DNA from: Candidatus Latescibacterota bacterium
GTDB taxonomy: Bacteria > Latescibacterota > UBA2968 > UBA8231
NCBI GenBank assembly: GCA_965217585.1
Contig: OZ244561.1
Span: 2,752,001 to 2,816,000 of the forward strand
DNA: 64,000 nucleotides
Reading direction: 5' to 3'
Position 1 is the first letter of the stretch. The number at the start of each line of letters is the position of its first letter. The translations under genes were made by a program, and so were the position numbers. Shown here piece after piece: positions 9,293 to 46,170 of the stretch. The notes under the pieces are model-generated. The model worked only from the letters and a program-made list of their open reading frames with translations. It ran no database searches and was not told where the DNA came from.

Positions 9293-9439
9293 TAGATCGG
9301 AGCGCGAACAAAAAAATCCTTTAGGAGTTATCCTAAAGGATTGAAAAACATGGGGGTTAAATAGCGAGAAAAATGTTGCGCTACGAGGCAGGCATTAGAT
9401 GGCGTTGCAAGCTGATCTACGATTTTTCGTTCAAACGGA

Positions 9440-12600: not shown

Positions 12601-12760
12601 ACCGGCTTACGCCGCCGTCGGTTGTGCCGACCCAGAGGAGGCCGTGGCGGTCTTGGTAGATGTCCTCCACATACATCCCGGCCAACCCGTCGAAGACCGT
12701 GTATTGCTCTCCGAGGATGTGACCAAATGCCTTGTTCTGGCTTGGGGCCGCGTGGTTCAT
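9632..12760 (-). CDS. sigma54-dependent enhancer-binding protein with N-terminal Reg_prop beta-propeller and Y_Y_Y domain
   Basis: Repeated (E/Q)DxxGxxWxGT blades, GETGVGK, ESELFGHEKGAFTSA, LFLDEVG, FREDLFYRL, WPGNVREL, Fis HTH. Confidence 0.92.
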   Translation of the reverse strand: MNHAAPSQNKAFGHILGEQYTVFDGLAGMYVEDIYQDRHGLLWVGTTDGGVSRFDGAHFDTFGLSDGLPHLTVTAIDEDADGRLLFGTFGGGLAAYDGRGFQVYTTEHGLPSNEILGLQTQADSSVWVLTTAGVGRFVEGRCVECMTELAGQPLGVVYDIAIDAAGTTWLATWEWGVISLDGRRMITRNDAMQWPWNFAHDAAGNLWIAFRYVGTEVVVGRYDPASQQFEIIRVDAGVEGTEVVQHGTRHVRVDDRGRLWLSRRGVLVYDGKEWHPFSAGLPDVHFSDTRLTYEDSEGNIWVGLWGGGLIFCDPISIQLYDKEDGLPDSEIRCLSEDREGRVWIGTTGGLACLEDGQIHPVEVGYTVFSMVVDRQGQVWSSGPDGQVFKSAGKETQAITVAAKDGYVEIKMLFQGREGRLNAYISEEQFGWIEGDRFTAIEDQWPFCRVVLQDREGSFWLGLHGTKPALYNYRDGHLCASDMAGMEAVAYVNALCEYQDALWVGTAHGLFAFDYQSKEVRQFTADQGDLSANGILALVADPQQECLWIGTSGGGVLKYDGRTFQSIRLGKAALENIVDAILLDSRGRLWFGTRAGLIAYQPGETPPRIRIRQVVAGRTFDEPQAVSCPESTPEIQFHFQGTSFRSGAEQMRYSHRLVGHGPAEEWSAFTPANRVTYQDVPAGLFHFEVRTIDRDGLMSDIARLEMRVVPTHLRRLEQMLRVSNQGFLSQSQSIARLLDQVESMAETDMTVLVLGETGVGKGVLARLLHNLSPRQANPFIPVNCGGLSAGLIESELFGHEKGAFTSANAQKIGYFERANGGTLFLDEVGDLPLDSQRALLHILEEGHLTRVGGEQSIPVDVRVVAATNKDLEEAIQAGTFREDLFYRLSVLSVVLPPLRERQEDIPLLAAHFASRCAEQLGRPTPVLGEEVVAHLQQHAWPGNVRELEHVIQQAVVLGDRDVIQVVDVPLQAAEAELALPVEQDFDGDAEDEDEKQRILAALQATNWRIYGPRGAARLLGIGPEKLRYRMRKHGLQRPEKPSQ

Positions 12761-12788
12761 TTTTAATCTCGTTCATCGGGACGACCGG

Positions 12789-12820
12789 CCGTAGGGGCGA
12801 CCGGCCGGCTGCCCCTACGG
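12789..12820. repeat. GTAG-type REP palindrome
   Basis: CCGTAGGGGC-GACCGGCCGGCT-GCCCCTACGG intergenic hairpin. Confidence 0.7.
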
Positions 12821-12860
12821 AGATGGTGAGGGATCGGCGAAAGGACTCCCTTCCCGACCC

Positions 12861-13883
12861 CTACGATGGCGTCGGCGCGTCTGCCCGCAGCAACCCTTCT
12901 GCCTTTAGCTCGGCCCACAGGTCCGTTGGTATTTCGTGCTGAAACCACTGGGCATTGGTCTCGACGTGCGCCGGGGTCTGCGCCCCGGGGATAATCGCCG
13001 CGACGAGGGGGTTCCCGAGCGGGAACTGCATGGCGGCGGCGGGCAAGGGCACGTCGTGCCGCTGGCAGACGGCTTGGATGCGGCGGGTCTTTTCGAGGAT
13101 TTCGGGCGAGGCTGTGTCATAGGCGTAGCGGGCACCCTCGACCGGGCCGGAGGCGAGGATGCCGGAAGCAAAGACCGAGCCGATGACGATACGCACGTCG
13201 CGCTCCGCGCAGAGTGGGAATTCCTCGTCGAGGGAGTCTTGGTCCAAAAGCGTATAGGGCATGGCGACGATGCAGAAGTCGAGGTCAACCCCGTCGAGCA
13301 GGCGCGGCATGGCACCCATGCGGTTGAGGCCTGCGCCGACGGCCTTGATCAGCCCCTGCGAGCGCAATTCGTCGAGGGCGCGCCAGCCGCTGGTGATTAG
13401 GTGGTTGACGTGGGCGGAGAAGCGCTGTTCGCTGTCGTGGAAAAAGCTGTCGAGGTCGTGGATCAACAGCAGGTCAATGGAGTTGAGGCTCAGCCGCTGC
13501 AAGCTGTCTTCCCACGAGCGCATGATGCCGTCGTACCCGTAGTCGAAGCGGAAATCGAAGGGCAGGCCGCCGACCCAGAAACCCTTCTCGAAAGAATCGA
13601 GGTCGCGGGTGGCCGTGAGCACTCGGCCGACCTTGGTCGAGAGCACGAAGTCCTTGCGTTCCTGCTGGCGGAGAAAGTGTCCGAGGCGGTGTTCGCTTTT
13701 GCCATAGCCGTAGAACGGGGCGGTGTCGTAGTAGCGGATGCCAGCGTCCCAAGCCGCTTGCAGGGTGTCTTGGGCTTGGGGTTCGCTGACCGGATCGAAA
13801 AGCTCGCCCAAAGGAGCACCGCCAAAGCCGAGCGTGCTTAGCTCGACGCCGGTACGCAAAGCGCGCGTGGGGATGGTGGACAT
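12861..13883 (-). CDS. Aldo/keto reductase (D-threo-aldose dehydrogenase-like)
   Basis: LGFGGAPLG, YDTAPFYG, LSTKVGR, IDLLLIHD. Confidence 0.9.
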   Translation of the reverse strand: MSTIPTRALRTGVELSTLGFGGAPLGELFDPVSEPQAQDTLQAAWDAGIRYYDTAPFYGYGKSEHRLGHFLRQQERKDFVLSTKVGRVLTATRDLDSFEKGFWVGGLPFDFRFDYGYDGIMRSWEDSLQRLSLNSIDLLLIHDLDSFFHDSEQRFSAHVNHLITSGWRALDELRSQGLIKAVGAGLNRMGAMPRLLDGVDLDFCIVAMPYTLLDQDSLDEEFPLCAERDVRIVIGSVFASGILASGPVEGARYAYDTASPEILEKTRRIQAVCQRHDVPLPAAAMQFPLGNPLVAAIIPGAQTPAHVETNAQWFQHEIPTDLWAELKAEGLLRADAPTPS

Positions 13884-13940: not shown

Positions 13941-15122
13941 TTAGAAGCGGCCGTGATGCGATTCGGCTGGTGCCTGGTACTCCACCTTGAGGTGGGGCGT
14001 TTCGAGTCGCTTGTGGTCCTCCACCTTGGAGGTCAGGCAGCTTTCGAGCGCGCCGCTGACGATTAAGGTGCGCTCGGCGGGAAAGGGCGCTTGCCCGCTC
14101 TCGATCATTTCCCAAATCTTGGCTACCAGACAGGCCGAGTACGTGACGTTGGGCGTCGGCGGCAAGAAAAATTGGGTCGAGATGGGATCGTCCTCGCCCG
14201 CGAGCTTACAGGCGAAGCAATAGTCGCGGATGGCGCCGTTGAGCATCAGGAGGGTTGTCTTGAGGCCGTCGTTGTGCTCGATGAAGTACGCGGCTGGCTC
14301 TTTGACGAGCCGGGGTAGCTCGCCGTTGCCCAGCAGGTCTTGGGTGCGGCCGTCCTCGTCGGTTTTGCCGCAAGGGGAGTCGCTGCGCGAGAGGGCGGAG
14401 TCGAGCAGTTCCAGCGAATAGCGCCCCTTCTCGCCCGCCTTCCACACGGCGTCTCCTTCGATCAATTGCACGGATTTGACGCCGGTTTCGCCGCCGGAGC
14501 GGCGCTCGATCATGCACTGCATGGCCTCTAGCGCGTGGTAATCCATCGGGTCGGAGCCGCCGACGCCGACCATCAGCGCCTCTTCGATCTGGCAGCCCAA
14601 GGGCAGCTCGACATCGGGCAGACGCCAAGTGACCGGCAGTGACGAACCGGCGAGAATCGGGAAGCCGAGCCGGTGGCCGTCGTCGACCATTTCTTGCGCC
14701 TTGTCGAAGCTATAGGAGAGGTGCTTGTCGTTGTAGATAGGCGCGGTGCGGCCGTCTGCTTCAAAGACCTTGACGCATTCTTTGAAAAACTCGTAGCGCG
14801 GATAGAGCTTCTGCCCCTTTTCGTTGTTGGGGTACTCGCCGTGCTCGCCAATGATCAGGACGGCGTCGCAAGCCAGTTCGTCGCCGCCGCAGCGCAGGGC
14901 CTCGGCGATGGTGGGGTACACTGCAAAGCCGAATTCGCGCGCTCGGTCTTGGCTTTGGTCGCCTTCGGGCTGCTGATCAACGTAGAGCGAGACGATTTTG
15001 CAGTCGGGGCGGTGCCAGTGGCCGCCGTAGGGATAGCCGACTAAGAAGCGGTCGGCAAAGTGCTGGGCGTGCGAGAGGTAGCGATAGATGGTGGCGATGA
15101 CGGCGATGCGTTTGGTAGCCAT
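13941..15122 (-). CDS. Conserved hypothetical protein (Rossmann-like, possible oxidoreductase)
   Basis: 393 aa; SHAQH, GEHGEYP, NDKHLS, GSSLPVTWR; paralog of the next gene. Confidence 0.75.
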   Translation of the reverse strand: MATKRIAVIATIYRYLSHAQHFADRFLVGYPYGGHWHRPDCKIVSLYVDQQPEGDQSQDRAREFGFAVYPTIAEALRCGGDELACDAVLIIGEHGEYPNNEKGQKLYPRYEFFKECVKVFEADGRTAPIYNDKHLSYSFDKAQEMVDDGHRLGFPILAGSSLPVTWRLPDVELPLGCQIEEALMVGVGGSDPMDYHALEAMQCMIERRSGGETGVKSVQLIEGDAVWKAGEKGRYSLELLDSALSRSDSPCGKTDEDGRTQDLLGNGELPRLVKEPAAYFIEHNDGLKTTLLMLNGAIRDYCFACKLAGEDDPISTQFFLPPTPNVTYSACLVAKIWEMIESGQAPFPAERTLIVSGALESCLTSKVEDHKRLETPHLKVEYQAPAESHHGRF

Positions 15123-15198
15123 GGGCGACGAAAGCTCCGGGGAAAGAGGCGAAGGGGTTCGGTGGTTGTGTTCTTAAAAGAAACACCGAAGGGGCATC

Positions 15199-16392
15199 CT
15201 AAGTTCTCCAGAAAGTGGATTCTTCGGTGGCCTGATAAGCGATGTTTAGATGGGGCGTCTCGACTTGGGTCTGATCTTGCTGAAGGCTATCGACGCCGGC
15301 GATGACCAAGCCCGAAGTGAGCAGGGTGCGTTCAACCGGATAGGTGGCTTTGCCGGTCAGGAACATCTGCTCGATGTTGTTGACCAGCGGGCTGAAGAAG
15401 TTGGCCAGCGTGGTGCGAGCCGGAGGCATGGGCAAGTACATCTGAGTCGAGAACGGCTCGTCCCGTCCTTTGAGCCGCGCGGCGAAGTTGAAGTCTTGAA
15501 CTAGTCCGTTCATCAGAATCATGGTCGAGCGGAGGCCGTCGGCGTGCTCGTACTGGTAGGCGATGGGGCTCTCGACTAGGTGCTTGAGTTCGTCAATGGT
15601 GGGGAAAGGATTGTTGAACCCAGGTCTTGCCGGAGTGAGCGTGTGGCTGCGGCAGAGGCAGGCTTCAAAAAGCGCGGGCGACCACACGCCCTCGGCGTGC
15701 GCTTGCCAGAAGGCGTCGTCGCGGTAGGCCCGGAGCCATTTGACGCCCGTCTCGCCCCCCTTTCTGCGCTCGACCATGCACTGCAAGGTCTCCAGCCCGT
15801 GGAAGTCGTAGCTATCGACGCCGCCACAGCAGACGCAGACAGCTTCTTCGACCTCGGCACCGAGAGGCATGTCGAGCGAGGGGGTGCGCCAAGTAACGGG
15901 CAACGAAGAACCGGCCATAAAGGCGAAATCGAGTTCGCACGAAATATCGTACATCTCTTGGCACCAGTCCCAGTTCCAGGAAAGGTGCTTGTCGTTGAAT
16001 ACGGGTGCGCTCTTGCCGGCAGTGCGATAGACCGAGGCGATCTGTTTGAAAAGCTCGTAGCGCGGGTAGAGGTGCTGGCCCTTTTCGTTGTGGCCGTAGC
16101 TGCCGTGCTCGGCGATGAGTAGGACGCCATCGACGGCCAAATCGGCCCCGCCCAGCGTCAGGGCGTCGGCAACGGTGGGGTAGATCGCCATGTGGGGAAA
16201 GCGGGTCGCTCGATCTTGGCTCAGATCGCCTTCGGGACGCTGATCCACGTACAGCGAGACCAGATCCATGGGCGGGTGGTGGTGCCGGCTGTTCCAGCCG
16301 TAGCCTTCGAGGAAGCGGTCGCAGATGTGCTGGGCGTGGGAGTACTTGCGGTACTCGGTGACGATGCCGGCGATTCTGGGGCGGTCGGCCAT
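15199..16392 (-). CDS. Conserved hypothetical protein, paralog of 13941..15122
   Basis: Same motifs: SHAQH, NDKHLS, GSSLPVTWR, YDFHGLE. Confidence 0.75.
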   Translation of the reverse strand: MADRPRIAGIVTEYRKYSHAQHICDRFLEGYGWNSRHHHPPMDLVSLYVDQRPEGDLSQDRATRFPHMAIYPTVADALTLGGADLAVDGVLLIAEHGSYGHNEKGQHLYPRYELFKQIASVYRTAGKSAPVFNDKHLSWNWDWCQEMYDISCELDFAFMAGSSLPVTWRTPSLDMPLGAEVEEAVCVCCGGVDSYDFHGLETLQCMVERRKGGETGVKWLRAYRDDAFWQAHAEGVWSPALFEACLCRSHTLTPARPGFNNPFPTIDELKHLVESPIAYQYEHADGLRSTMILMNGLVQDFNFAARLKGRDEPFSTQMYLPMPPARTTLANFFSPLVNNIEQMFLTGKATYPVERTLLTSGLVIAGVDSLQQDQTQVETPHLNIAYQATEESTFWRT

Positions 16393-28081: not shown

Positions 28082-28894
28082 ATGACCGACCGACCGGCTA
28101 TCGAAATTTACTCTATCGGCACAGAGCTTTTAAACGGACAGATCCAAGACACCAACTCTTTCTGGATGGCGCAGCAGATCGCGGCGCTCGGCGGCTATGT
28201 GCGTCGGATCGCGATCCTCGACGACGATATGGACGAGTTGACCGGCGTGCTCAAAGACGCCTGCCGGCGCGGAACCCGGGTGGTGATCACCACTGGGGGA
28301 CTCGGGCCGACGCCCGACGACATGACGGTCGAAGCCATCGCCAAGATCATGGGGGTGGGCACGGAAGTCGATGAAACCTTGGTCAAGCGCTATATGGAAA
28401 GCCGTGGTATCGAAAAGCGCGCTGACGTCAGCGAAGGCCTGGTCAAGATGGCGACCAAACCGGAAAGCTCCACGGCCCATCCCAACCCGGCGGGCGTGGC
28501 TCCCTGCGTGGAGTCGCAGGTCGGCGAGACCACGATTTACAGCCTACCGGGTCCGCCGCGTGAGGTTGAAGCGCTGTTTCGCCAGTCGGTAGAGGATGCC
28601 TTGGCCGGGATATACGACGATGTGCGGCTTGCGTTGCGGGTCGTCGTCAACCTACCCGAATCGCAGTGCGGCCCGATCCTGCACAGCGTAATGAGCCAGT
28701 GTCCCAATACCTACCTCAAGGCCTTCGTCGCGTTGAGCGAGCGCACTGCCGATGGTCAGCGGTTGCCGGTGGATATCGTCGTTTGGGGCAAGGAGGCCGA
28801 GGAGGCGCAGGCCCTGCTCGACAAGGCGTTGGCGGAGTTTAAGGTTCAGGCGTTTGAGAAGGGTAGCGAGGTCGAAATCCGCGACGAGCAGTAG
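28082..28894 (+). CDS. CinA-like molybdopterin-binding (MocF/COG1058) domain protein
   Basis: [34 protein letters not shown]. Confidence 0.85.
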
Positions 28895-30612
28895 GTCCGC
28901 GAAGTAGCAACAGCCCGCTCGTCCTTTGATAATCCATAGATCTGGAATACAGCCGCGTTGCAGGCGGCAATGTCGCGGCTATTCGCTGCCTCCCCCAGAG
29001 CACTTTTGAGCTTTTCGTCCACGTCTTGCCAGTAAGGCAGTCGGATACGGCGCAGATATTGCGCCTGAAATCGCAAGTAGCCGCCACGCATCCGAGTCGA
29101 ATAGACCGACACAAACAGGCGGGCGATACCCGATAGCAGCACGGCTTGCAGCGCGTACAAATCCCATTCATCACTCGTGATAAAGTAGAGATTGTGGTGC
29201 GGGTAAAGCTTGCCGCATTCATAGACGATATGGGCTTGGCCCTTGATATCAGGGATTAGCAACTTCGGCTTACTGGCGAGGGCTGGATAGATGCGATCAA
29301 TCGTGCGATACCAGTTAGCAGGTGATTTCTTTGCGACATGCCGTTTTGCTATCTGGTCCTTGCGGGCTTCCAGATAGGTTTTGAGTTTGGGGAATTTTGC
29401 TAGATCAACAAGCCCCCCTTCATCGGCAAACGGATTGACGACGCCAAGGCCGCGCCATTTGACGGTGCCTGTGATAATATCGCGGGTCATCGCCAGTGGT
29501 AGTTTGCGATCCGGCTCTACATCCAGCTCGTCATAGGGACCGATAAAGGCTTGATCGGCACCGGTAGCGACACCGACGCCGATCTTACACCCTACCTCTT
29601 CGATTAGCGGAAAATCTCGCTCCAGTCGCCGGACAAGGGCAAGTTGGTCGGACGACTCCAATATCCAGGGTTCGGCTCCTGCCGCAACGCCGGTCATTTC
29701 CTTGACCCCACTCTCTGAGGCGGGCTTTTCTTTGGATAGCAGGGTCTTGCTTAAAGCCTTGAGCGTTGCCGGCTTAATCTCGGGACGGTGCGCGACGCGA
29801 GTTTTGCCCGGCTTTTCATTAGCAATAATAGTAATAGCTGGATAGGCAATAACATCTGTATGGAAGGCCGGTGTATCGACCATATCGACATACATTTTCA
29901 GATGAAATTTATCAGCAGTCAGTTTACGTAGCGGTCCTCCATAACGGTTTTTCATCCAGCGATCAGCGCAGATAAATCCAAGCGTACCGCCCGACTCCAG
30001 CAGGTTAAGTGAGCGCTCGATAAACGGGATATAGAGGTCTGCGCGGTCAAATACGGTCGTATAGCGCGTGCGGTATTCGGCAAGAAGCGCAGCGGGAATC
30101 AGCTCTTGCCGCACATAAGGTGGATTGCCAACCACGCAGTCAAACGCAAACGGCAGCGGCGTGAGAAGAAAATCGCCCTTGATGAGCCAGGTATCGGCAA
30201 GAGTGGTGGCTGGCTTTGTCTCAAGCCCTTCTGCCTTGAGCATGGCGATGACCTTCTCGCGCGTTGCCTGAAAAGTATCGTCATGCAATTCGACGGCCCT
30301 AATGGCATTGGCCAGCATTTCTTTCGGATCGGCGTTGCTCTTTCGCTTGCTCCACGCCTTGAGCAAGCGCTCGATCGCGATAAGAAGAAAATCGCCACCG
30401 CCAAAAGAAGGCTCCAGCAGGCGAATTTCATGCAAAGGTCGGTCTGTGGTATAGTTGACAAGGTCGAGGATGAACTCGACGACCTCGCGCTTTGTAAAGA
30501 TTGCGCCGCGTTCCTCGATTCCGGCTTGCGCCAGTTTGGTCAGCGCATCCTCGACCGGGCACATGCCGGGGAAGGAGGCTTGAGTTACTTGTTGTAGTGC
30601 GCTCTGCACCAT
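28846..30612 (-). CDS. Type II N6-adenine DNA methyltransferase (Eco57I/TaqI/PaeR7I-like)
   Basis: [38 protein letters not shown]; lower GC than neighbours. Confidence 0.88.
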
Positions 30613-37565: not shown

Positions 37566-40004
37566 ATGGCTTTGAAGAAGTCGCAACTCTACTCGTCGCT
37601 GTGGCAAAGCTGCGACGAGTTGCGCGGCGGCATGGACGCTTCGCAGTACAAGGACTACGTCCTAACGCTGCTGTTTATGAAGTACGTCTCGGACAAGTAC
37701 GCTGACGATCCGTACCCGCTCATTGAAGTTCCACCCGGCGGCAGTTTCGCGGACATGGTAACGCTCAAGGGCGACAAGGAGATCGGCGATAAGATCAACA
37801 AGATCATCGGCCAGCTTGCCGAGGCTAACGACCTCAAGGGCGTCATCGATCAGGCCGATTTCAACGACGAGAGCAAGCTCGGCACGGGCAAGGAAATGCA
37901 GGATCGGCTCTCCAAGTTGGTCGCCATATTCGAGGGCCTCGACTTCCGCGCCAACCGCGCCGAAGGCGACGACCTGCTCGGCGATGCCTACGAATACTTG
38001 ATGCGGCACTTTGCCACTGAGTCGGGCAAGAGCAAGGGGCAGTTCTATACGCCGGCCGAGGTCTCACGCATTATGGCGCAAGTGGTCGGCATTGGCTCGG
38101 ATACCCAACAGGACCGGACGATCTACGACCCGACTTGTGGTTCTGGTTCGCTGCTGCTGAAGGCTGCGGACGAAGCGCCGCGCGGCATTACCGTTTACGG
38201 CCAGGAGATGGACAACGCCACCTATGCGCTGGCGCGGATGAACATGATCCTGCACGGCCACGAGACCGCCGAACTCTGGCGCGGCAACACCTTGGCCGCT
38301 CCGTACTTCAAGAACCCGGACGACCGTCTCAAGATCTTTGATTTTGCCGTCGCCAATCCGCCCTTTTCCGCCAAGGCTTGGTCCAGCGGTCTCGATCCGG
38401 CTAACGACGAGTTTGGGCGTTTTGCCTACGGGATCCCACCGGCGAAGAATGGAGACTATGCCTTCCTCTTGCATCTGATTGCGTCGCTCAATAGCAAGGG
38501 CAAGGGCGCAATCATCCTGCCGCACGGTGTGCTGTTTCGCGGCAACAAGGAGGCGGACATCCGCAAAAATCTCATCCGGCGTGGCTTTATCAAGGGTATC
38601 ATCGGTCTGCCGACCAACCTGTTCTACGGCACTGGCATTCCCGCCTGCATCTTGGTTCTCGATAAAGAGAATGCCCACGCCCGCAGCGGCATCTTCATGA
38701 TCGACGCGAGCAAGGGCTTCCTCAAGGACGGCAACAAGAATCGCCTGCGCGCCCAAGACATCCACCGGATCGTCGATGTGTTCAATCGGCAGACCGAGGT
38801 GCCGCGCTATTCTCGCATGGTGCCGGTGTCCGAGATCGCCAGTCCGGCGAACGACTATAATCTGAACATTCCGCGCTACATCGATTCCAGCGAACCGGAA
38901 GACCTGCACGACCTCGACGCGCATTTGCACGGTGGCATCCCCGACCGCGATCTCGACGCGCTCGGCACCTACTGGGACGTCTTTCCCTCGCTGCGTCAAG
39001 CGTTGTTTGTGGGCAACGGGCGGGTGGGCTACAGCGAGGCTCGCGTTGAGACGCCGCAAGTGAAGGCCGCCATTCTCGGTCATGGGGAGTTCGGGTCGTA
39101 CGAGGCGCGGGTCGCCGGTATCTTCGACGCTTGGCGTGAGGCGCACGAGCCGATTCTCAAGGGACTGGAGATAGACGCCAATCCCAAGGACATCATTCGC
39201 ACTCTGGCGGAGGATATGCTGGCGAGATTTGCCGACGTACCGCTGCTCGACGCGTACGATGTGTATCAGCGGCTGATGGACTATTGGGACGAGGTGATGC
39301 AGGACGATATGTATCTCATCGCCGCGGACGGTTGGGGCGAGGCGGCCAAGCCGCGCGGTATCGAAGACAAAGACAAAAAGATCAAAGAGACGCCGGACCT
39401 TACTATCAAGCGCAAGAAGTACAAGATGGACTTGATTCCTCCGGAGTTGATCGTCGCGCGTTACCTAGCCGATGAACAGGCCGCTGTCGAGGCGCTACAG
39501 GCCAAGCAGGAAGTGGCCGCGCGCGAGTTGGAGGAGTTCGTCGAAGAGCACACCGGCGAGGAGGGTTTGCTGGAAGACGCGGTGAACGACAAGGGCAAGG
39601 TCACCAAGGGCGGCGTGATGGAGCGGCTCAAGGCCATCCGGTACGAGCCGGAGAGCGACGAGGAACGCGATGCCCTCAAGCAATGTCGGACGTTGATTGA
39701 GTCTGACGCCGAGGCGGCCAAGGCTGTCAAGGAGGCCCAAGCTCGTTTGGATGAGCAGGTGCTGGCCCGCTATGGCGCGCTCACCGAAGCCGAGATCAAG
39801 ACGCTGGCGGTCGAGGACAAGTGGTTTGCCAGCATCCGGGGCGCTATCGAGGGTGAGGTGCAGCGGCTGACCCAGCAGCTCGCCGGGCGGGTGAAGGAAC
39901 TGGAAGAGCGCTACGCCTGTCCGCTGCCGGAGTTGGAGCGGGAGGTGGAGGCGTTTGGCGATAAGGTTGAGGGGCACTTGAAGCGGATGGGGATTTCGCT
40001 ATGA
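37566..40004 (+). CDS. hsdM: Type I restriction-modification methyltransferase subunit M
   Basis: DELRGGMDASQYKDY, GQFYTP, YDPTCGSG, ANPPF, LPHGVLFRG. Confidence 0.95.
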   Translation: MALKKSQLYSSLWQSCDELRGGMDASQYKDYVLTLLFMKYVSDKYADDPYPLIEVPPGGSFADMVTLKGDKEIGDKINKIIGQLAEANDLKGVIDQADFNDESKLGTGKEMQDRLSKLVAIFEGLDFRANRAEGDDLLGDAYEYLMRHFATESGKSKGQFYTPAEVSRIMAQVVGIGSDTQQDRTIYDPTCGSGSLLLKAADEAPRGITVYGQEMDNATYALARMNMILHGHETAELWRGNTLAAPYFKNPDDRLKIFDFAVANPPFSAKAWSSGLDPANDEFGRFAYGIPPAKNGDYAFLLHLIASLNSKGKGAIILPHGVLFRGNKEADIRKNLIRRGFIKGIIGLPTNLFYGTGIPACILVLDKENAHARSGIFMIDASKGFLKDGNKNRLRAQDIHRIVDVFNRQTEVPRYSRMVPVSEIASPANDYNLNIPRYIDSSEPEDLHDLDAHLHGGIPDRDLDALGTYWDVFPSLRQALFVGNGRVGYSEARVETPQVKAAILGHGEFGSYEARVAGIFDAWREAHEPILKGLEIDANPKDIIRTLAEDMLARFADVPLLDAYDVYQRLMDYWDEVMQDDMYLIAADGWGEAAKPRGIEDKDKKIKETPDLTIKRKKYKMDLIPPELIVARYLADEQAAVEALQAKQEVAARELEEFVEEHTGEEGLLEDAVNDKGKVTKGGVMERLKAIRYEPESDEERDALKQCRTLIESDAEAAKAVKEAQARLDEQVLARYGALTEAEIKTLAVEDKWFASIRGAIEGEVQRLTQQLAGRVKELEERYACPLPELEREVEAFGDKVEGHLKRMGISL

Positions 40005-40007
40005 GTC
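39942..40007 (+). repeat. hsdM 3'-end repeat (A), further copies at 41223..41273 and 42538..42567
   Basis: GAGGGGCACTTGAAGCGGATGGGG shared with the second copy; TTGAAGCGGATGGGGATT(T/G)CGCTATGAGTC 29/30 with the third. Confidence 0.9.
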
Positions 40008-41140
40008 GAAAATTCGATTTTGAGAATCTCGTGGAGTTGTGTCGGCGAACCCACGAGGAAACACAACGCTCGGCGGCGCGTACCGTCGATAGTTCACTTG
40101 TAGTGCGAAACTATCTGTTCGGCTGGTATATCGTCGAGTATGAACAGCATGGCGCGGATAGGGCGGAATACGGCAGTCAGACCCTGCGAAAGCTCTCTGC
40201 TGCTTTGACGGCCACTATTGGTCGAGGCTTCGGCGAGAGAAATTTGCGGCAGATAAGGCAATTCTATCTGCGCTACAGCAGCCTACTGCAACAGCCTGCG
40301 ACACCACAGACTGATGGCTCCGAGATTTGGCAGACACCGTCTGCCAAATTCACAACTCCGGATCCAGAATCTCTCGCGCTACGAGCCATGACGACAGACT
40401 TGGCCCATCAAATCTCCCTCGGCTGGTCCCACTACGTCACTCTTCTGACCATCGACAATCCCGAAGAGCGCCGCTTTTACGAGGTTGAGGCTGCGGGCAA
40501 CGGCTGGAGTGTGCGCGAGTTGGAGCGGCAGATCGCCAGCTCCCTGTACGAGCGGCTCGCACTCAGCCGCGACAAGGAGGAAGTTCGTCGGCTTGCCAGC
40601 GAGGGGCAGGTGATCGAGAAGTCATCAGACTTGATTAAGAACCCACTGGTGCTGGAGTTTCTTGGGTTGAAGGAAAAGCCCGTCTATTCCGAAAGCGAAC
40701 TGGAAACAGCGATTATCGACCGGCTTCAGCACTTCTTGCTGGAGTTGGGCAAGGGATTTCTGTTCGAGGCGCGGCAGAAGCGGTTTACTTTCGACAACAG
40801 TCATTTCCGCGTGGATCTCGTTTTCTACAACCGGCTACTGCGCTGCTATGTTCTGATTGACCTCAAACGCGGCGAATTGACCCATCAGGACTTGGGTCAG
40901 ATGCAGATGTACGTCAACTACTTTGACCGCTATGTGAAGACTGACGACGAACTTCCGACCATCGGTATTGTGCTCTGTGGCCGCAAGAACGATGCCGTGG
41001 TTGAGCTGACGCTACCGGAAGAAGCCAACATCTACGCGTCGAAATACCAACTCTATCTGCCGTCGAAACAGGAGCTTGTAGCCCAACTGGAGAGCATCCA
41101 GAGAGAGTTGAACTATCGGGAAGGCGCAGACGATGAATAG
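40001..41140 (+). CDS. DUF1016/YhcG-family PD-(D/E)XK nuclease
   Basis: GWSHY, WSVRELERQI, KNPLVLEFL, FLLELGKGF, DLGQMQMYVNY. Confidence 0.92.
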   Translation: MSRKFDFENLVELCRRTHEETQRSAARTVDSSLVVRNYLFGWYIVEYEQHGADRAEYGSQTLRKLSAALTATIGRGFGERNLRQIRQFYLRYSSLLQQPATPQTDGSEIWQTPSAKFTTPDPESLALRAMTTDLAHQISLGWSHYVTLLTIDNPEERRFYEVEAAGNGWSVRELERQIASSLYERLALSRDKEEVRRLASEGQVIEKSSDLIKNPLVLEFLGLKEKPVYSESELETAIIDRLQHFLLELGKGFLFEARQKRFTFDNSHFRVDLVFYNRLLRCYVLIDLKRGELTHQDLGQMQMYVNYFDRYVKTDDELPTIGIVLCGRKNDAVVELTLPEEANIYASKYQLYLPSKQELVAQLESIQRELNYREGADDE

Positions 41141-41291
41141 CGGGCAAGGGACAATGGGCAGCGCCGTTGGAGCCGGACGCCGTGCGCTGTCGAAAGAGGT
41201 ACCAGTGGGTTACAAGCGGACTGAGATGGAGGTGTTCGGCGCGAAGGTCGAGGGGCACTTGAAGCGGATGGGGCTGGGAGCGGTGCGATGA
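41133..41291 (+). CDS. 52-aa hybrid mini-ORF: HsdS N-terminus fused in frame to HsdM C-terminus
   Basis: MNSGQGTMGSAVGAGRRALSKEVPVGYKRTE|MEVFGAKVEGHLKRMGLGAVR; overlaps both neighbours. Confidence 0.7.
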   Translation: MNSGQGTMGSAVGAGRRALSKEVPVGYKRTEMEVFGAKVEGHLKRMGLGAVR

Positions 41292-42541
41292 AACGATTGG
41301 AACTTCTCGAACTGATAGCCGGGGGCGAAAACTCTGGAGTGGAGTTCAAGCGGGATGATTTGCGTCCGGAGCAACTGGCGCGGGAAGTGGTGGCTCTCGC
41401 CAACTTTCAGGGGGGTCGCGTCCTGCTCGGAGTGGAAGACGACGGCACCATCACCGGCATACAGAGAGACGATCTCGAACAGTGGGTGATGGATTCCGTG
41501 TTTGGGCGCGTGGTGCATCCGATGATACTGCCATTCTACGAGGAGGTTCCGATAGATGACGTTCGCCGCGTCGCGGTTGTCACTGTCACGCAAGGTGCCA
41601 CCAAACCCTATGTCGTCCGGTATCGCGGCAGGGAAGACATCTACGTACGGATCGGCAGTACCTCTCGGCTGGCCTCGCGCGAGCAGCAGGCGCGGCTTTT
41701 TGCTGCCGGTGGGCTGATTCACACGGAGCTATTGCCCGTTTCCGGCAGCGGTCTGTGCGATTTGAGCCGGGAACGGTTGGCGGACTATCTCACCGCTATT
41801 GTCGGCGACCGGGAAGTGCCGGAGACCGACGAGGCGTGGAACGAGCGGCTTTGCGCGCTGGGATTCATGGTCGAGCGGGAGGACGGCCCGCCCGCCTGTA
41901 CGATCGCCGGATTGATCCTGTTCGGCTATCGGCCGCGCCGCCTGTTGCGCCATGCCGGCATCCGCTGGATGTGCTTTGAGGGGCGGGAGAAAACCTACGA
42001 TGCCCTTGACGATCAAGTGATTGAAGGGCCGCTTGTCGATCATTGGCAGGTGCTGTCGGGGGGTCGTGAACTGGTGGAGAAGGGGCTGATTGAACGCCTT
42101 GCCGATGCGATGCGGCCGTTTGTATCCGAGGAGGCTGGCCAAGTAGAAGAATCCATGCGCCGGGAACGACGCTGGCACTATCCGCTGGAAGCGCTGCGCG
42201 AAGGCGTTGTCAATGCGCTGACGCATCGGGATTGGACGCGGTACGAGGAGATTGAGGTGGTCCGTTATGCGGACCGGATAGAGATACTCAGCCCTGGTGC
42301 ACTGCAAAACGGCATGACGGTCGAAAAAATGGTTGCTGGTCAACGGGTTCCCCGCAATCTGCTCATCTCCGAGACGCTGCGGGACTACAGCTATTCGGAT
42401 GCACGCGGCATGGGGGTGCGGAACAAGATCATTCCGTTGATGCGGGCGCACAACGGCGTTGACCCGGAGTTTGAGGCGACGGAGGACTACTTGCGGTTGA
42501 CGCTGCGCCGAGGTTCGGCACAAAGGCCGAGGGACGATTGA
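41288..42541 (+). CDS. Schlafen/AlbA_2 domain plus HATPase_c_4 (RecG-C-like) protein
   Basis: GENSGVEFK, VALANFQGG, GVEDDG, YVRIGS, LREGVVNALTHRDW, RGMG. Confidence 0.88.
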   Translation: MKRLELLELIAGGENSGVEFKRDDLRPEQLAREVVALANFQGGRVLLGVEDDGTITGIQRDDLEQWVMDSVFGRVVHPMILPFYEEVPIDDVRRVAVVTVTQGATKPYVVRYRGREDIYVRIGSTSRLASREQQARLFAAGGLIHTELLPVSGSGLCDLSRERLADYLTAIVGDREVPETDEAWNERLCALGFMVEREDGPPACTIAGLILFGYRPRRLLRHAGIRWMCFEGREKTYDALDDQVIEGPLVDHWQVLSGGRELVEKGLIERLADAMRPFVSEEAGQVEESMRRERRWHYPLEALREGVVNALTHRDWTRYEEIEVVRYADRIEILSPGALQNGMTVEKMVAGQRVPRNLLISETLRDYSYSDARGMGVRNKIIPLMRAHNGVDPEFEATEDYLRLTLRRGSAQRPRDD

Positions 42542-42585
42542 AGCGGATGGGGATTGCGCTATGAGTCAAACGAAAGAAAAATAAA

Positions 42586-42897
42586 ATGTCCGCACCAAGA
42601 CCTCGGTACAGCAAAGAGGAGTTTGCTCGCCGTGGCGATGAGATTTACGACCGAGATATAAGCCCTCATGTTGGACCTGACGACGAAGGTAAATTCGTGG
42701 TCATCGACATTGAGACGGGAGCATATGAGATTGATCAGGATGAACTGGCTGCATCCGACCGGCTTCTTGCCCGCAGACTTGATGCACAAATTTGGACAAG
42801 GCGTGTCAGATCCCGGTATGCTCGCCGCCTGCCGCGCAGATTGAACAGACAGTGTCTGCGAAATTCACGACCGCTGCTGCCATTCGAGATCAGGTGA
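42586..42897 (+). CDS. Small hypothetical protein (DUF5678-like)
   Basis: EEFARRGDEIYDRDI...GKFVVIDIETGAYEID; 3' tail may be a scar. Confidence 0.65.
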   Translation: MSAPRPRYSKEEFARRGDEIYDRDISPHVGPDDEGKFVVIDIETGAYEIDQDELAASDRLLARRLDAQIWTRRVRSRYARRLPRRLNRQCLRNSRPLLPFEIR

Positions 42898-42902
42898 ACT
42901 TG

Positions 42903-44120
42903 ATGGATAGCGGGCAAGGGACAATGGGCAGCGTCCTTGGAAATAGACGCCGTGTGCTATCGGAAGAGGTGCCAGTGGGTTACAAGCGGACTGAGGTGGG
43001 GGTGATTCCAACTGATTGGATTGTTACTCGTCTTGGCGGCTGCGGTGAGATAATCATGGGTCAGTCCCCGCCCGGTACGTCCTATAACAGGTCAGGCGTT
43101 GGTAGTCCACTGATCAATGGCCCCACTGAGTTCACTGAATTACATCCAGTCAAAGTTCAATGGACGACACAGCCTGCGAGGTTTTGTAAGCCCGGAGACC
43201 TGTTGATTTGTGTGCGAGGAAGCTCTACCGGGCGTACCAATTATGCAGACGAAATATATGCGATCGGTCGCGGCGTCGCTGCGATACGAGCCAAAGCCGA
43301 CAATGACACGCAATACTTGAGCTATCAAGTGATATCGGGGGTATCCGATCTTCTGGCGGCAGCGACGGGATCTACATTCCCAAGCGTCGATGGCGCATCA
43401 TTCAGGAAGATCCTCGTTTTATTGCCTTCTCCAGCCGAACAACGCGCCATGGCCGAGGCGTTGTCGGATGTGGATGGGTTGCTCGCGGCGTTGGAGGCGC
43501 TGATCGCCAAGAAGCGGGCCATCAAGCAGGCCGCCATGCAGCAACTCCTCACCGGCAAGAGCCGCCTGCCGGGGTTTAGCGGGGCGTGGGAGACGAAGCG
43601 GTTGGGGGAGATCGCACCACTACAAAGAGGTTTTGATTTGCCCACCTCACAAATCCAACCAGGATCATACGCTGTCGTTTATTCAAATGGTGTCTTACAG
43701 CACCATGAACGGGCGATGGTGAAGGGTCCGGGCGTCGTCACTGGGCGATCAGGGACAATTGGGAAAGTTCATTTCATCGAAAAGGACTACTGGCCGCATA
43801 ACACAGCTCTTTGGGTCACGTCCTTTCGCGAGAACGACCCGAAGTTCATTTACTACCTTTACACCCACATCAATCTCGTACAATTCCTGTCTGGCTCAGG
43901 CGTTCCTACGTTGAATCGAAATGATGTTCATCAGCATCTCGTCGCTTGTCCCCCTCTCCCAGAGCAACGCGCCATCGCCGCCGTCCTCTCCAACATGGAC
44001 GCCGAGATCGCCGCGCTGGAACGACGCCGGGCCAAGACCCGCGCCGTCAAGCAGGGCATGATGCAGCAGCTTCTCACCGGCCGGGTGAGGCTGGTCAAAT
44101 CGGAGCAGTCATGGCGGTAA
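42903..44120 (+). CDS. hsdS: Type I R-M specificity subunit S
   Basis: VPVGYKRTEVGVIP; two TRDs; repeated EQRA..A.LS.D...KQ..MQQLLTG helices. Confidence 0.95.
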   Translation: MDSGQGTMGSVLGNRRRVLSEEVPVGYKRTEVGVIPTDWIVTRLGGCGEIIMGQSPPGTSYNRSGVGSPLINGPTEFTELHPVKVQWTTQPARFCKPGDLLICVRGSSTGRTNYADEIYAIGRGVAAIRAKADNDTQYLSYQVISGVSDLLAAATGSTFPSVDGASFRKILVLLPSPAEQRAMAEALSDVDGLLAALEALIAKKRAIKQAAMQQLLTGKSRLPGFSGAWETKRLGEIAPLQRGFDLPTSQIQPGSYAVVYSNGVLQHHERAMVKGPGVVTGRSGTIGKVHFIEKDYWPHNTALWVTSFRENDPKFIYYLYTHINLVQFLSGSGVPTLNRNDVHQHLVACPPLPEQRAIAAVLSNMDAEIAALERRRAKTRAVKQGMMQQLLTGRVRLVKSEQSWR

Positions 44121-44590
44121 CGTACTTAGACCAGGAGATCGAGTCGTTGGTACAGGAGCGCAAGCCTGCGCCTGCCGATTGGCACAATCGGATTCGTCTA
44201 AAACCCAAGCGGGGGCACGATGAGGAGCAACTGGATCTGACCGGTGATGCAGGTAACGAGTTCCGCTTGATCTTTAGGCAGAACAAGATCAATCCGCTCG
44301 ACTTCTCGGTCATCCTAGCTGTTCGAGTTCCGGGATTGAGCCAGATATTTCGCCTCCGGCGCTACAACGGCAAGAGCCACGAACACACCAACCATATCGA
44401 AGACGTCACATTTTATGATTTTCACATTCACATTGCGACGGAGCGGTATCAGGAGCGCGGAACACGAGAGGACGCCTACGCCGAGCCGACTGATCGTTAT
44501 GGCGATTTCCACGGTGCCCTTCGCTGTCTAATTAACGACGCGAATCTCGAAGTCCCGCCCGAATCGCAGGGCAACCTTTTCGAGGAGTAG
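44111..44590 (+). CDS. Hypothetical protein (DUF6978-like, His-rich)
   Basis: RLRRYNGKSHEHTN...FHIH; overlaps the hsdS stop; paired with the DUF1828-like gene. Confidence 0.7.
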   Translation: MAVTYLDQEIESLVQERKPAPADWHNRIRLKPKRGHDEEQLDLTGDAGNEFRLIFRQNKINPLDFSVILAVRVPGLSQIFRLRRYNGKSHEHTNHIEDVTFYDFHIHIATERYQERGTREDAYAEPTDRYGDFHGALRCLINDANLEVPPESQGNLFEE

Positions 44591-44593
44591 TAA

Positions 44594-45373
44594 GTGATGT
44601 CCATCGAGACCATAGAGCGAGATTTTCACCAGAAGGTTTCGGCGAAGGTTCGGCTAGCAGCCGAGGGCATGGAACGCTTCCGCGTGTTTACTCCGTTCCT
44701 GTTCGAGGACGGCGACCACTTAGCCATTGTCCTGAAAAAGGAGGGAGCGCGGTGGGTACTGTCCGATGAGGCGCATACGTACATGCACCTAACCTATGAC
44801 ATTGATGAGAGGGATTTTCATGGCGGCACGCGCCAGAAGATCATCTCCAACGCACTGTCCACGTTCCAGATTGAGGACCGCGATGGCGAGTTGGTACTCG
44901 ACGTGCCGAATGAACGTTACGGTGACGCGCTGTATTCCTTTGTGCAGGCGCTTCTCAAGATCTCCGACGTGTCGTACTTGTCGCGGGAACGGATTCGGTC
45001 CACGTTCATGGAGGATTTTCGGGCACTGTTGAGTGAAGCTGTCCCGGAAGAGCGCAGGAGTTTTGACTGGAGCGATCCCAGACATGACCCCCACGGGATG
45101 TACACCGTGGACTGCCGAATCAACGGCATGCCCCGACCGCTTTTCGTTCACGCCCTCACCAGTGACGGCAGGACCCGCGATACTACGATCGCGCTGCTCC
45201 AGTTCGAGAAGTGGAATATCCCGTTTCGTTCCCTAGCCATCTTCGAGGATCAGGAGTCGATCAATCGCAAGGTGTTGGCACGCTTCAGCGATGTCTGCGA
45301 GAAGCAGTTCTCCAGCCTCACCGCGAACCGGGAAAGGATCACACGCTTTCTGCATGAAAGCATCTCAGGATGA
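44594..45373 (+). CDS. DUF1828-like protein
   Basis: [33 protein letters not shown]. Confidence 0.75.
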
Positions 45374-45394
45374 GACACCAGGAACTCACGGAGC

Positions 45395-46069
45395 TTGAGC
45401 GTGCCGACGAATATCCACCTAGACTACGCCAGTCCCCTCACGATTCAGATTCGCGTGCACGACGACCGGATCACAATCTGGAATGCGGTGCAGTTGCCAC
45501 CTGAACGGGCTACAGGTCAACTTGCCGGGGAACTTTCGTCAAAGCCGTATAACCCGCGAATCGCCTACGCGTTCTTCCGTGCCGGAATGATCGAAGCTTG
45601 GGGACGGGGTATCTGGCGAATCGTGGAAATGTGCAAAGAGGCTGGCAACCCCACGCCACAGTGGAAGCTGGAAGCTGGCGGTGACGGTCTGTGGTTGAGG
45701 TTCCCGTTCTCTGCCGCGTACTTGGACTTGGACAGGGAAACAAGGCAAGTCATAGGGAGGCCAGAGTCGCAAGTAGACCGGAATCAAGATGGGGTGCAAG
45801 ATGGGGTGCAAGCTGAATTGTCAGTCAGAGATGTTGCCATGCTGCAAGCTTGTATTCAAGGAGCGACTACGAGTAAGGGATTGCGAGCGGCTGCGAGCTA
45901 TTCGACGCGAACGAGGAGCTTCGAGCAGCGGCTTGAGCGACTCCTGCAAGAAGAATTGTTGGAAATGACTCTCCCTGACAAACCGAGGAGTCCATTGCAG
46001 GAGTATCGGCTGACGGACAAGGGGCGGGCCGCGCTCGCAAGTCTGAATCCAGAGAGCACACAGACATAA
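45395..46069 (+). pseudogene. 5'-truncated HATPase_c_4 plus C-terminal winged-HTH protein
   Basis: IHLDY..IQIRVHDDRITIWN, PYNPRIA, IEAWGRG, EMTLPDKPRSPLQEYRLT; begins mid-domain. Confidence 0.7.
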
Positions 46070-46170
46070 GCGCCTTCGCCTCGGCCATCTTCCGCCTCGC
46101 TTCCGCACGGGGAAAGCTGGTCAATCGGCAGGCCGTCGCTTAGGTTTGCCTCCGCGAAAGGAGGAATCGC

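Follow-up and report, generated by a model that had tools for sequence, protein, structure and literature searches.

Stacked embedded genes and duplicated hsd gene ends in a type I restriction-modification island that lacks hsdR

Genes and repeats between hsdM and hsdS

We analyzed a 64,000-nucleotide (nt) stretch of the genome of a Candidatus Latescibacterota bacterium (contig OZ244561.1, positions 2,752,001 to 2,816,000 of the forward strand), referred to below as the window. It contains a type I restriction-modification (R-M) island in which accessory genes (cargo) and duplicated ends of core genes lie between the methyltransferase gene hsdM and the specificity gene hsdS. The order on the + strand is hsdM, a DUF1016 gene, a 52-codon open reading frame (ORF) that fuses the start of hsdS to the end of hsdM (hsdS'-'hsdM), an AlbA_2/HATPase_c_4 gene, a further copy of the hsdM end, a truncated small gene and hsdS. 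An earlier note, made from the letters of the sequence, had described this order and the copies of the hsdM end (A) and hsdS start (B), and both were confirmed by ORFs, Pfam and PADLOC matches and profile searches, far beyond chance. The array is a real, well-resolved case of embedded genes stacked in a type I island without hsdR, with its recombination joints mapped, and it resembles a set of recombination scars more than any new integron-like machine. For comparison we used a genome scan for the HsdM family that confirmed 563 relatives and retained the best 80 as loci (L numbers); by record title, their sources are many phyla and one archaeon (L049). Gene families were assigned by Pfam and PADLOC, with NCBIfam run on six window proteins (those of the three cargo genes and of three downstream genes).

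All features of the island given here are on the + strand. The intact hsdM gene (37566-40004) encodes an 812-aa type I methyltransferase subunit (Pfam N6_Mtase 9e-102 and HsdM_N; PADLOC MTase_I PDLC03027 over its full length, 1-811 of 810). The family is strongly conserved, with 81-94% identity among the matches listed (at least 120 database clusters). The first cargo gene (40001-41140) encodes a full-length 379-aa protein with DUF1016_N and PDDEXK nuclease-like YhcG_C domains (Pfam 1e-34 and 9e-53; PADLOC PDC-S02 1e-135) and is 90-94% identical in nucleotide sequence to the DUF1016 genes of L021, L062, L003 and L029. The second (41288-42541) encodes a 417-aa protein with AlbA_2 (Schlafen-type) and HATPase_c_4 domains (Pfam 8e-20 and 2e-16; PADLOC gave weak pAgo-associated matches) and is 86-94% identical at the nucleotide level to genes of L006, L009, L014, L021, L023 and L024. 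As the earlier note had reported, each of these genes begins in an ATGA stop/start overlap, DUF1016 with hsdM (40001-40004) and AlbA_2 with the fusion ORF (41288-41291). The fusion ORF itself overlaps the DUF1016 stop by 8 nt.

The third cargo gene (42586-42897, 103 aa) is truncated at its 3' end. It has no PADLOC, Pfam or NCBIfam match, and in the protein atlas it matched only unnamed clusters of ~90 aa (at 0.90-0.91). It is 91% identical in nucleotide sequence to a gene of L035, where (12517-13160) a 91-aa protein is followed by a gene for a TIGR03698 clan AA (retropepsin-like) aspartic protease. That protease was the sole match of the NCBIfam scan, which gave zero matches for the six window proteins. 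The window keeps the small gene without the protease and with an altered tail that diverges from L035 past residue ~80. Thus, the gene is predicted to be the 3'-truncated first member of a small-protein and aspartic protease pair. The array ends with hsdS (42903-44120), which is intact, encodes 405 aa as annotated, and has two stretches of Pfam Methylase_S and a PADLOC Specificity_I match (7e-81).

Three copies of the hsdM end and two of the hsdS start are present. A1 (39942-40010) is the genuine 3' end of hsdM with the stop/ATGA overlap and the first codons of DUF1016. A2 (41223-41291) is the hsdM 3' end of an AlbA_2-linked allele, with the tail ...MGLGAVR and ATGA. A3 (42513-42584), delimited by repeat comparison and by the joints of relatives, is an old hsdM-end scar followed by ~11-13 nt of a DUF1016 start, now a dead ORF of 7 codons. 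B1 (41132-41234) is a decayed copy of the hsdS leader and 5' start, and B2 (42902-43004) is that of the functional hsdS. B1 and B2 are identical at 90/103 positions, A1 (39942-39992) and A2 (41223-41273) at 45/51, and A1 (39953-40010) and A3 (42513-42570) at 47/58; the 29/30 identity given earlier for 42538-42567 holds on reading the sequence. The longest exact runs between window copies are 15-27 nt and identity is 66-88%. A 15-mer core, TTGAAGCGGATGGGG, has three exact copies in the 64 kb and was absent from all 100 shuffled versions. Profiles made from the hsdM ends and hsdS starts of relatives matched the A copies (E 3e-14 for A1, and 1e-12 and 4e-7) and the B copies (E 3e-38 and 6e-29), and elsewhere in the window gave one chance-level A match (9341-9369, E 0.37).

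The copies were proposed earlier to come from different donor alleles, and A2 bears this out: it is closer to the hsdM ends of L023 and L024 (49/51) than to the resident A1 (45/51), and its tail also precedes AlbA_2 in L004 and L016. B1 is farther than B2 from all relatives (nearest at most 89%, versus up to 94% for B2) and therefore looks like a decaying remnant. Among the 48 sequences with a B match (47 loci and the window), only the window has a second copy.

The 52-codon fusion ORF (41133-41291) has no family match. Three-way sequence comparison places its joint at 41223-41235, in a microhomology of the GAGGTGGRGGYG type, with 12 of 13 nt common to the hsdS start and the hsdM end. Codon ~31 of hsdS is thereby fused to codon ~796 of hsdM. 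The ORF is open because the microhomology lies in the same reading frame of both genes. Relatives' hsdM ends and hsdS starts carry the motif too (an exact 11-mer of it is found in 13 of 49 hsdS copies). Eight candidate database matches to the fusion ORF were scored and seven were hits. Two of these (P0126 and P0127) are ordinary HsdS starts and five are hsdS'-'hsdM fusions with 77-94% identity. P0121 is 94% identical, with joint and tail as in the window, and P0125 has the same joint and is then broken; with P0122, P0123 and P0124 included, the five fusions have three different downstream tails. The recurrence of the fusion in these other proteins indicates that the joint is real, old and propagated, and argues against an assembly artefact.

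All repeats in the window are direct, so phase-variable inversion was rejected, and inverted repeats were not found at the cargo boundaries. A Xer/dif-like site was rejected as well, as there is no resemblance by eye to the consensus. Compared with shuffled sequences, attC-like folding was absent from A1 (z +0.25) and from the B1/A2 joint (z +0.34), and from the opposite strand of each (z -0.40 and +1.53). A3 alone folds better than shuffles (z about -3), a feature absent from the other copies, and no hairpin shared among A and B copies was found. Promoter-like sites (1 versus 3.2 expected) and terminator-like sites (5 versus 8.0 expected) do not exceed shuffles. No integrase, recombinase or transposase domain was identified in ORFs of the island or in window ORFs of at least 250 aa (shorter ORFs outside the island were not scanned), in agreement with the earlier statement that no integrase is in view.

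Related loci and the setting of the island

Interval lengths were obtained for the 73 of the 80 loci in which both the hsdM stop and hsdS were located. The hsdM-hsdS interval is at least 450 nt long in 35 loci and shorter in 38. Pfam matches were obtained for 35 of 77 ORFs in these gaps, all 35 on the hsd strand, and for none of the 15 ORFs on the opposite strand. Full DUF1016 genes are present in eight loci and AlbA_2/HATPase_c_4 genes in five, and further loci have truncated versions of them. Also among the cargo are PIN pairs, a 281-aa family that has no Pfam match, TIR, Gp49/DUF2188, Cap15 with a DAC cyclase, DUF2971, DUF6883, DUF6932 and pentapeptide genes. The Cap15-like receptor and DACNG-DACNH-DAC cyclase genes lie between hsdM and hsdS in L033 (12499-14985) and form a cyclic-nucleotide signalling pair. 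Seven loci (L004, L005, L006, L009, L014, L016 and L062) share the upstream flank of the window (88-93% nucleotide identity), and four of these share the downstream flank also; the content of the interval differs in each of the seven. Cargo therefore varies at one orthologous site, and the objection of invariant cargo to the earlier note fails.

Extra hsdM-end copies were found by profile search in 15 of 76 loci (weak rows of L020, L044 and L070 left out; the scar of L023 is known from blastn and stands outside this count). Fourteen of the 15 have them between hsdM and hsdS and one has them upstream only. Homology starts 37 to 69 nt before the hsdM stop, with exceptions at -108 (L049) and -258 (an upstream fragment in L018), after removal of rows that overlap hsdM itself (L018 at 12597, L036 at 12542 and L017 at 13776). 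The longest exact runs are 6-43 nt. At the other end of hsdS, copies of its 3' end occur downstream in 17 of 71 loci (e.g., L007, L028, L057 and L042). These flank cargo of the hsdS-hsdR interval and thus represent terminal duplication at a second hotspot. In L007 (17598-19113), for example, a DUF6978-DUF1828 pair is flanked by hsdS 3'-end copies.

Window pieces occur separately in other loci, in line with the earlier view of the array as a stack of alternative inserts. Positions 40413-41234 (the 3' part of DUF1016 and B1) align colinearly with the junction of DUF1016 and hsdS in L021, L062 and L003 (90-93%), and positions 41228-42570 (A2, AlbA_2 and A3) are colinear with the genuine hsdM end, AlbA_2 and scar of L021 (91%) and L006 (92%). 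The window joins two allele types found apart in sister genomes, hsdM-DUF1016-hsdS and hsdM-AlbA_2-A'-(DUF1016 remnant)-hsdS. L021 encodes the same two cargo genes in reversed order (hsdM-AlbA_2-scar-DUF1016-hsdS). The form of the hsdM end goes with the gene that follows: the tail ...MG(I/L)SL with ATGAGTC pairs with DUF1016, an LGAVR-type tail with ATGAAACG pairs with AlbA_2, and 4-nt stop/start overlaps are the rule across loci.

The joint between the AlbA_2 3' end and the hsdM end lies at one position in the window, L004, L006, L014, L016, L021 and L024. The final codons and stop of the AlbA_2 gene sit within A3, and this stop is a TGA within the conserved core in the window, L006, L021 and L024. 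A3 is one old, inherited AlbA_2/hsdM-end joint rather than a recent import, and is common to at least seven loci. The DUF1016 gene behind this scar is complete in L021 and is cut after ~185 nt in L006, ~180 nt in L014, ~25 nt in L023 and L024, ~20 nt in L016 and ~11-13 nt in the window. L006 also retains a 288-nt 3' piece of DUF1016, and in L040 only the two ends of the gene are left, the scar of an internal deletion. AlbA_2 has an internal deletion in L004 and L016. Given the differing endpoints of these deletions, cargo is lost by imprecise deletion. A DUF1016-like start directly follows hsdM despite other cargo in L007, L012, L018, L026 and L033, and a DUF1016-3'-like remnant precedes the hsdS leader even in loci without DUF1016. 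Thus, DUF1016 looks like an earlier occupant of the interval that was later replaced or stacked upon.

Truncated AlbA_2/HATPase_c_4 and small genes were also identified upstream of hsdM in L016 (8062-9058), L062 (4502-6644) and L029 (8864-9922), accompanied by a Methyltransf_11 gene in L016 and L062 and by an hsdM-end scar in L029. They are relics of older layouts on that side of hsdM. In L016, the closest hsdM relative, an IS630-type element (HTH_33 and DDE_3; 14267-15270) splits hsdS just past its conserved start. L049 (10001-15120), a metagenome-assembled genome (MAG) titled Methanoculleus sp., encodes the same hsdM (74-75% amino acid identity) with DUF1016, and has a 108-nt hsdM-end duplicate (102 of 108 identical) ahead of hsdS; the whole arrangement is apparently shared between domains. 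A distant blastn search of a plasmid collection with 39000-43100 as query returned 28 records (26 at 60-80% identity and two at 80-90%), each covering at most 16% of the query, and no plasmid vehicle was found.

The island occupies a conserved site on the chromosome, with an amidohydrolase gene on one side and an epimerase gene on the other, and its G+C content is 0.54-0.58, compared with 0.60-0.68 in the flanks. Behind hsdS is a DUF6978 and DUF1828 pair (44111-45373; Pfam; PADLOC PDC-M24B), 94% identical in nucleotide sequence to that of L005, which is cargo of the second (hsdS-hsdR) hotspot. The island ends with an N-terminally truncated HATPase_c_4 and Fic-like_C gene (45395-46069; Pfam). 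An hsdR gene is present downstream in 54 of the 80 relatives, including L005, L006 and L014 at the same site, with a YgjP-like gene also in L006 and L014. Both genes are missing from the corresponding region of the window (43946-46100), and tblastn with the HsdR and YgjP proteins of L006 found neither anywhere in the 64 kb. HsdM and an HsdS with two target recognition domains are thus encoded (Pfam; PADLOC, full length) and HsdR is not in the window, so the system is probably methylation-only. With hsdR absent, any interplay of the cargo with restriction is lost. The DUF1016 (PDC-S02) and DUF1828 (PDC-M24B) genes match candidate defence families and, lying on the same strand among core genes (DUF1016 nested between hsdM and hsdS), are embedded defence candidates; we infer a putative role in defence for the cargo.

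Two further observations concern hsdS. Across 16 aligned loci its first 60 nt (42903-42962) have no codon-position bias (0.15/0.17/0.14), and nt 60-105 do (0.04/0.04/0.18). The true start of hsdS may be later than annotated, with the first 60 nt a conserved leader. The region of its first target recognition domain (42902-43612) is 92% identical over 711 nt to L040 (12801-13511), from a MAG titled Rhodothermales, compared with only ~81% identity between the hsdM genes of the two, which suggests that hsdS specificity domains are exchanged across phyla. Another modification gene, with no obvious partner, lies 7 kb upstream on the - strand (28846-30612), in a patch of low G+C content (0.52-0.53). 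It encodes a 588-aa Eco57I/TaqI_C-type methyltransferase (PADLOC MTase_II 3e-258).

Origin of the array

We consider it fairly probable that the hsdM-hsdS interval of this R-less type I island is an embedding hotspot of a known kind that grew by unequal or illegitimate recombination among hsd alleles. One parental allele would have been hsdM-DUF1016-hsdS and the other hsdM-AlbA_2-(hsdM-end scar)-DUF1016 remnant-small gene-hsdS. A single crossover at the in-frame 12/13-nt microhomology between hsdS start and hsdM end would have joined these alleles and left the 52-codon fusion ORF. The route may have been homology-facilitated illegitimate recombination (HFIR) of incoming DNA, an unequal crossover between sister or tandem copies, or integration of a circle, and the three look alike on present evidence; HFIR is a plausible route for the array. 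A3 would be an older scar of a like event, in which AlbA_2 was placed ahead of a unit of hsdM end and DUF1016, the latter then decaying. The earlier note had the inserts stacked by crossover on conserved hsd ends. The joints proved illegitimate instead, at short microhomology (hsdS codon ~31 with hsdM codon ~796, and the AlbA_2 3' end with the hsdM end).

The scars may have been kept for what they carry: each bears a ribosome-binding stretch and the ATGA or GTGA overlap of the next gene, and A3 provides the AlbA_2 stop. They would persist also because they are too short and diverged to recombine often; long scars would presumably delete new cargo, so that those which remain are short or diverged. 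The genes are co-oriented and are probably transcribed from the hsd promoter as a single operon. We infer the recombination route described above, and translational coupling as the selective reason for retaining the scars.

Several points weigh against this interpretation. Long duplicates with few differences in L049 (102/108 identical, longest exact run 43 nt) and L057 (113/116, longest exact run 58 nt) could still recombine. The fusion ORF is open in four of the five related fusions, a count that is biased because the database takes only called ORFs, and is followed by differing tails; this could reflect function or an active recombination joint. These five fusions (P0121-P0125) are known from their protein sequences. 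A3 is now coupled to no live gene, being followed by its 7-codon dead ORF and then by the ATG of the small gene at 42586. None of the 80 loci offers a donor closer than ~90-95% in nucleotide sequence, and a sliding identity scan between hsdM and 18 relatives gave no sharp mosaic breakpoint and no relative above ~95%; the events must therefore be old, and the order in which the steps occurred is a reconstruction. Translational coupling and operon expression are read from the gene overlaps, and the array and its joints from assembled sequence.

If the A and B copies are working sites rather than scars, circles with a B/A joint would excise and re-insert by RecA-dependent crossover without an integrase, and arrays would grow, shrink and shuffle continually. 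The variation of cargo at one site would fit such active cassettes, and terminal duplicates flank cargo at both hotspots, a few of them long and nearly identical (L049 and L057). The B/A fusion is also the joint expected on a circle and recurs with three different downstream tails, and an analogous model has been published for Rhs genes (PMC2935791). However, we think this unlikely. The exact runs between window copies (15-27 nt) and their identity (66-88%) are low for the purpose, of the 48 sequences only the window has a duplicated B, no hairpin signal is common to the copies and no recombinase was found within the ORFs scanned. The AlbA_2/hsdM-end joint is one inherited event rather than a site of repeated exchange. 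A-A or B-B crossover had been proposed in the earlier note as something that could excise or swap cassettes; relatives show imprecise internal deletions with varied endpoints instead of precise excision. Integron-like cassette excision is on balance not favoured.

A broader form of this idea, which we likewise regard as doubtful, treats the duplicated ends as functional components of a system that captures defence genes in general and needs no recombinase. Units with the hsdM 3' end at one boundary and the hsdS 5' leader at the other (likewise with the hsdS 3' end) would circularise at in-frame microhomology of the GAGGTGG type, and the conserved hsdS'-'hsdM mini-ORF would be the circle joint. 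Such units would cross phyla together with this highly conserved hsd family, and homology of 50-100 nt would serve for their re-insertion.

It is somewhat less likely again that the array arose by deletion between tandem operons, in which hsdM-DUF1016-hsdS and a following hsdM-AlbA_2-...-hsdS were fused from hsdS codon ~31 to hsdM codon ~796. The joint is of the microhomology deletion type, and additional hsd pieces do lie near hsdM in some loci, such as the upstream hsdM 3' fragment in L018 and the truncated AlbA_2 and small genes, with or without a scar, in L029, L016 and L062. However, two complete tandem hsdM...hsdS units of the family were found in none of the 80 loci over the range fetched. 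A prior tandem insertion and a deletion of more than 3.5 kb would be needed where one unequal crossover suffices, and the fusions with other tails (P0122-P0124) would require repeated tandem ancestors.

That the 52-aa fusion product is itself functional, e.g., as a mimic of the HsdS N-terminus and HsdM C-terminus that modulates methyltransferase assembly, seems improbable. An open frame is present in the window and in the four related fusions mentioned above, which are among those with 77-94% identity, but that database holds called ORFs only, the first 60 nt of hsdS lack codon-position bias even in real hsdS genes, and B1 is more diverged from hsdS starts than B2 (at most 89% versus up to 94%). 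An assembly chimera of two strain alleles is very improbable: the assembly is possibly metagenomic and both allele types exist in related genomes, but an assembler could not bridge the joint on the mere 12-13 nt that its two sides have in common, the reading frame runs through it, the copies are diverged rather than collapsed repeats, and P0121 (94% identical, same joint and tail) and the decayed P0125 come from other database entries.

Comparison with known systems and significance

Type I R-M operons are known to carry embedded accessory genes (Payne et al. 2024 preprint, 10.1101/2024.01.29.577857). Examples of genes nested in this way are PrrC in EcoprrI and TgvAB in VPI-2 of Vibrio cholerae (PMC11411939), and Campylobacter rlo genes, cited in the same paper, are reportedly a further case. 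DUF1016 between type I core genes has been noted as well (PMC9881135). The window resembles the published cases in having accessory genes on the same strand between hsd core genes. Those papers catalogue cargo, whereas here the joints are mapped and hsdR is absent. Duplicated gene ends, joints or an insertion route are not described in the portions of the embedded-gene texts that were searched; in the text of the preprint covered, 'recombination' and 'hotspot' occur 0 times and 'repeat' once, in an unrelated sense. More generally, we found no description of duplicated hsd ends in the literature searched, the scope of which excluded subscription journals and closed supplements.

C-terminal displacement in Rhs genes is the nearest mechanistic model for the array. 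In these loci an intact gene has modules behind it, and every module begins with a piece, variable in length, of the gene's conserved 3' region (Jackson et al. 2009, PMC2935791). The model for Rhs and contact-dependent inhibition (CDI) genes invokes recombination on the conserved fragment, possibly via circles and with no dedicated recombinase, and the arrays differ between relatives (PMC2935791). The window is similar in that modules behind an intact gene are led by its 3' fragment (A2 and A3). It differs in that the fragment is only 28-108 nt and the modules are separate genes rather than alternative C-termini. Displaced Rhs modules are silent, whereas those of the window would stay linked by ATGA overlaps. 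A second kind of joint, hsdS start to hsdM end, is also present in the window and distinguishes it from Rhs loci.

The likeness to an integron drawn in the earlier note stands in part. As in an integron, co-oriented, apparently promoterless single-gene inserts of variable content lie behind one promoter and have repeated boundaries. On the other two of the three counts considered, the window has neither IntI, among the ORFs scanned, nor attC-type hairpins. It also lacks attI and a fixed crossover point; its boundaries are coding remnants, and loss is imprecise.

In HFIR, as defined in PMC3240628, foreign DNA is joined by one homologous anchor and one microhomology joint, and the window would be alike in this. 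It is also like the minimal mobile elements of Neisseria, in which alternative cassettes are swapped between conserved flanking genes by ordinary recombination (PMC3787668). We found no description of HFIR or minimal mobile elements at hsd gene ends in the literature searched.

Embedding of extra defence genes is known from operons of type I R-M, BREX and similar systems, and it is used to predict new defence systems. Their route of entry is not addressed in the papers searched, and the window and its relatives supply mapped joints: at each of two hotspots, cargo followed by duplicates of the upstream hsd gene's 3' end; an hsdS'-'hsdM fusion that recurs; and DUF1016 remnants of an earlier occupant. 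These point to recombination resembling terminal displacement, among alleles of a widely shared hsd family, as a route of embedding. Duplicated-end signatures provide a simple sequence handle for finding such events elsewhere, and the array is still in place in a system from which hsdR was lost. If the duplicated ends did act as a capture system, the embedding of defence genes in multi-gene immune systems would have a defined mechanism, and arrays would reshuffle in living populations.

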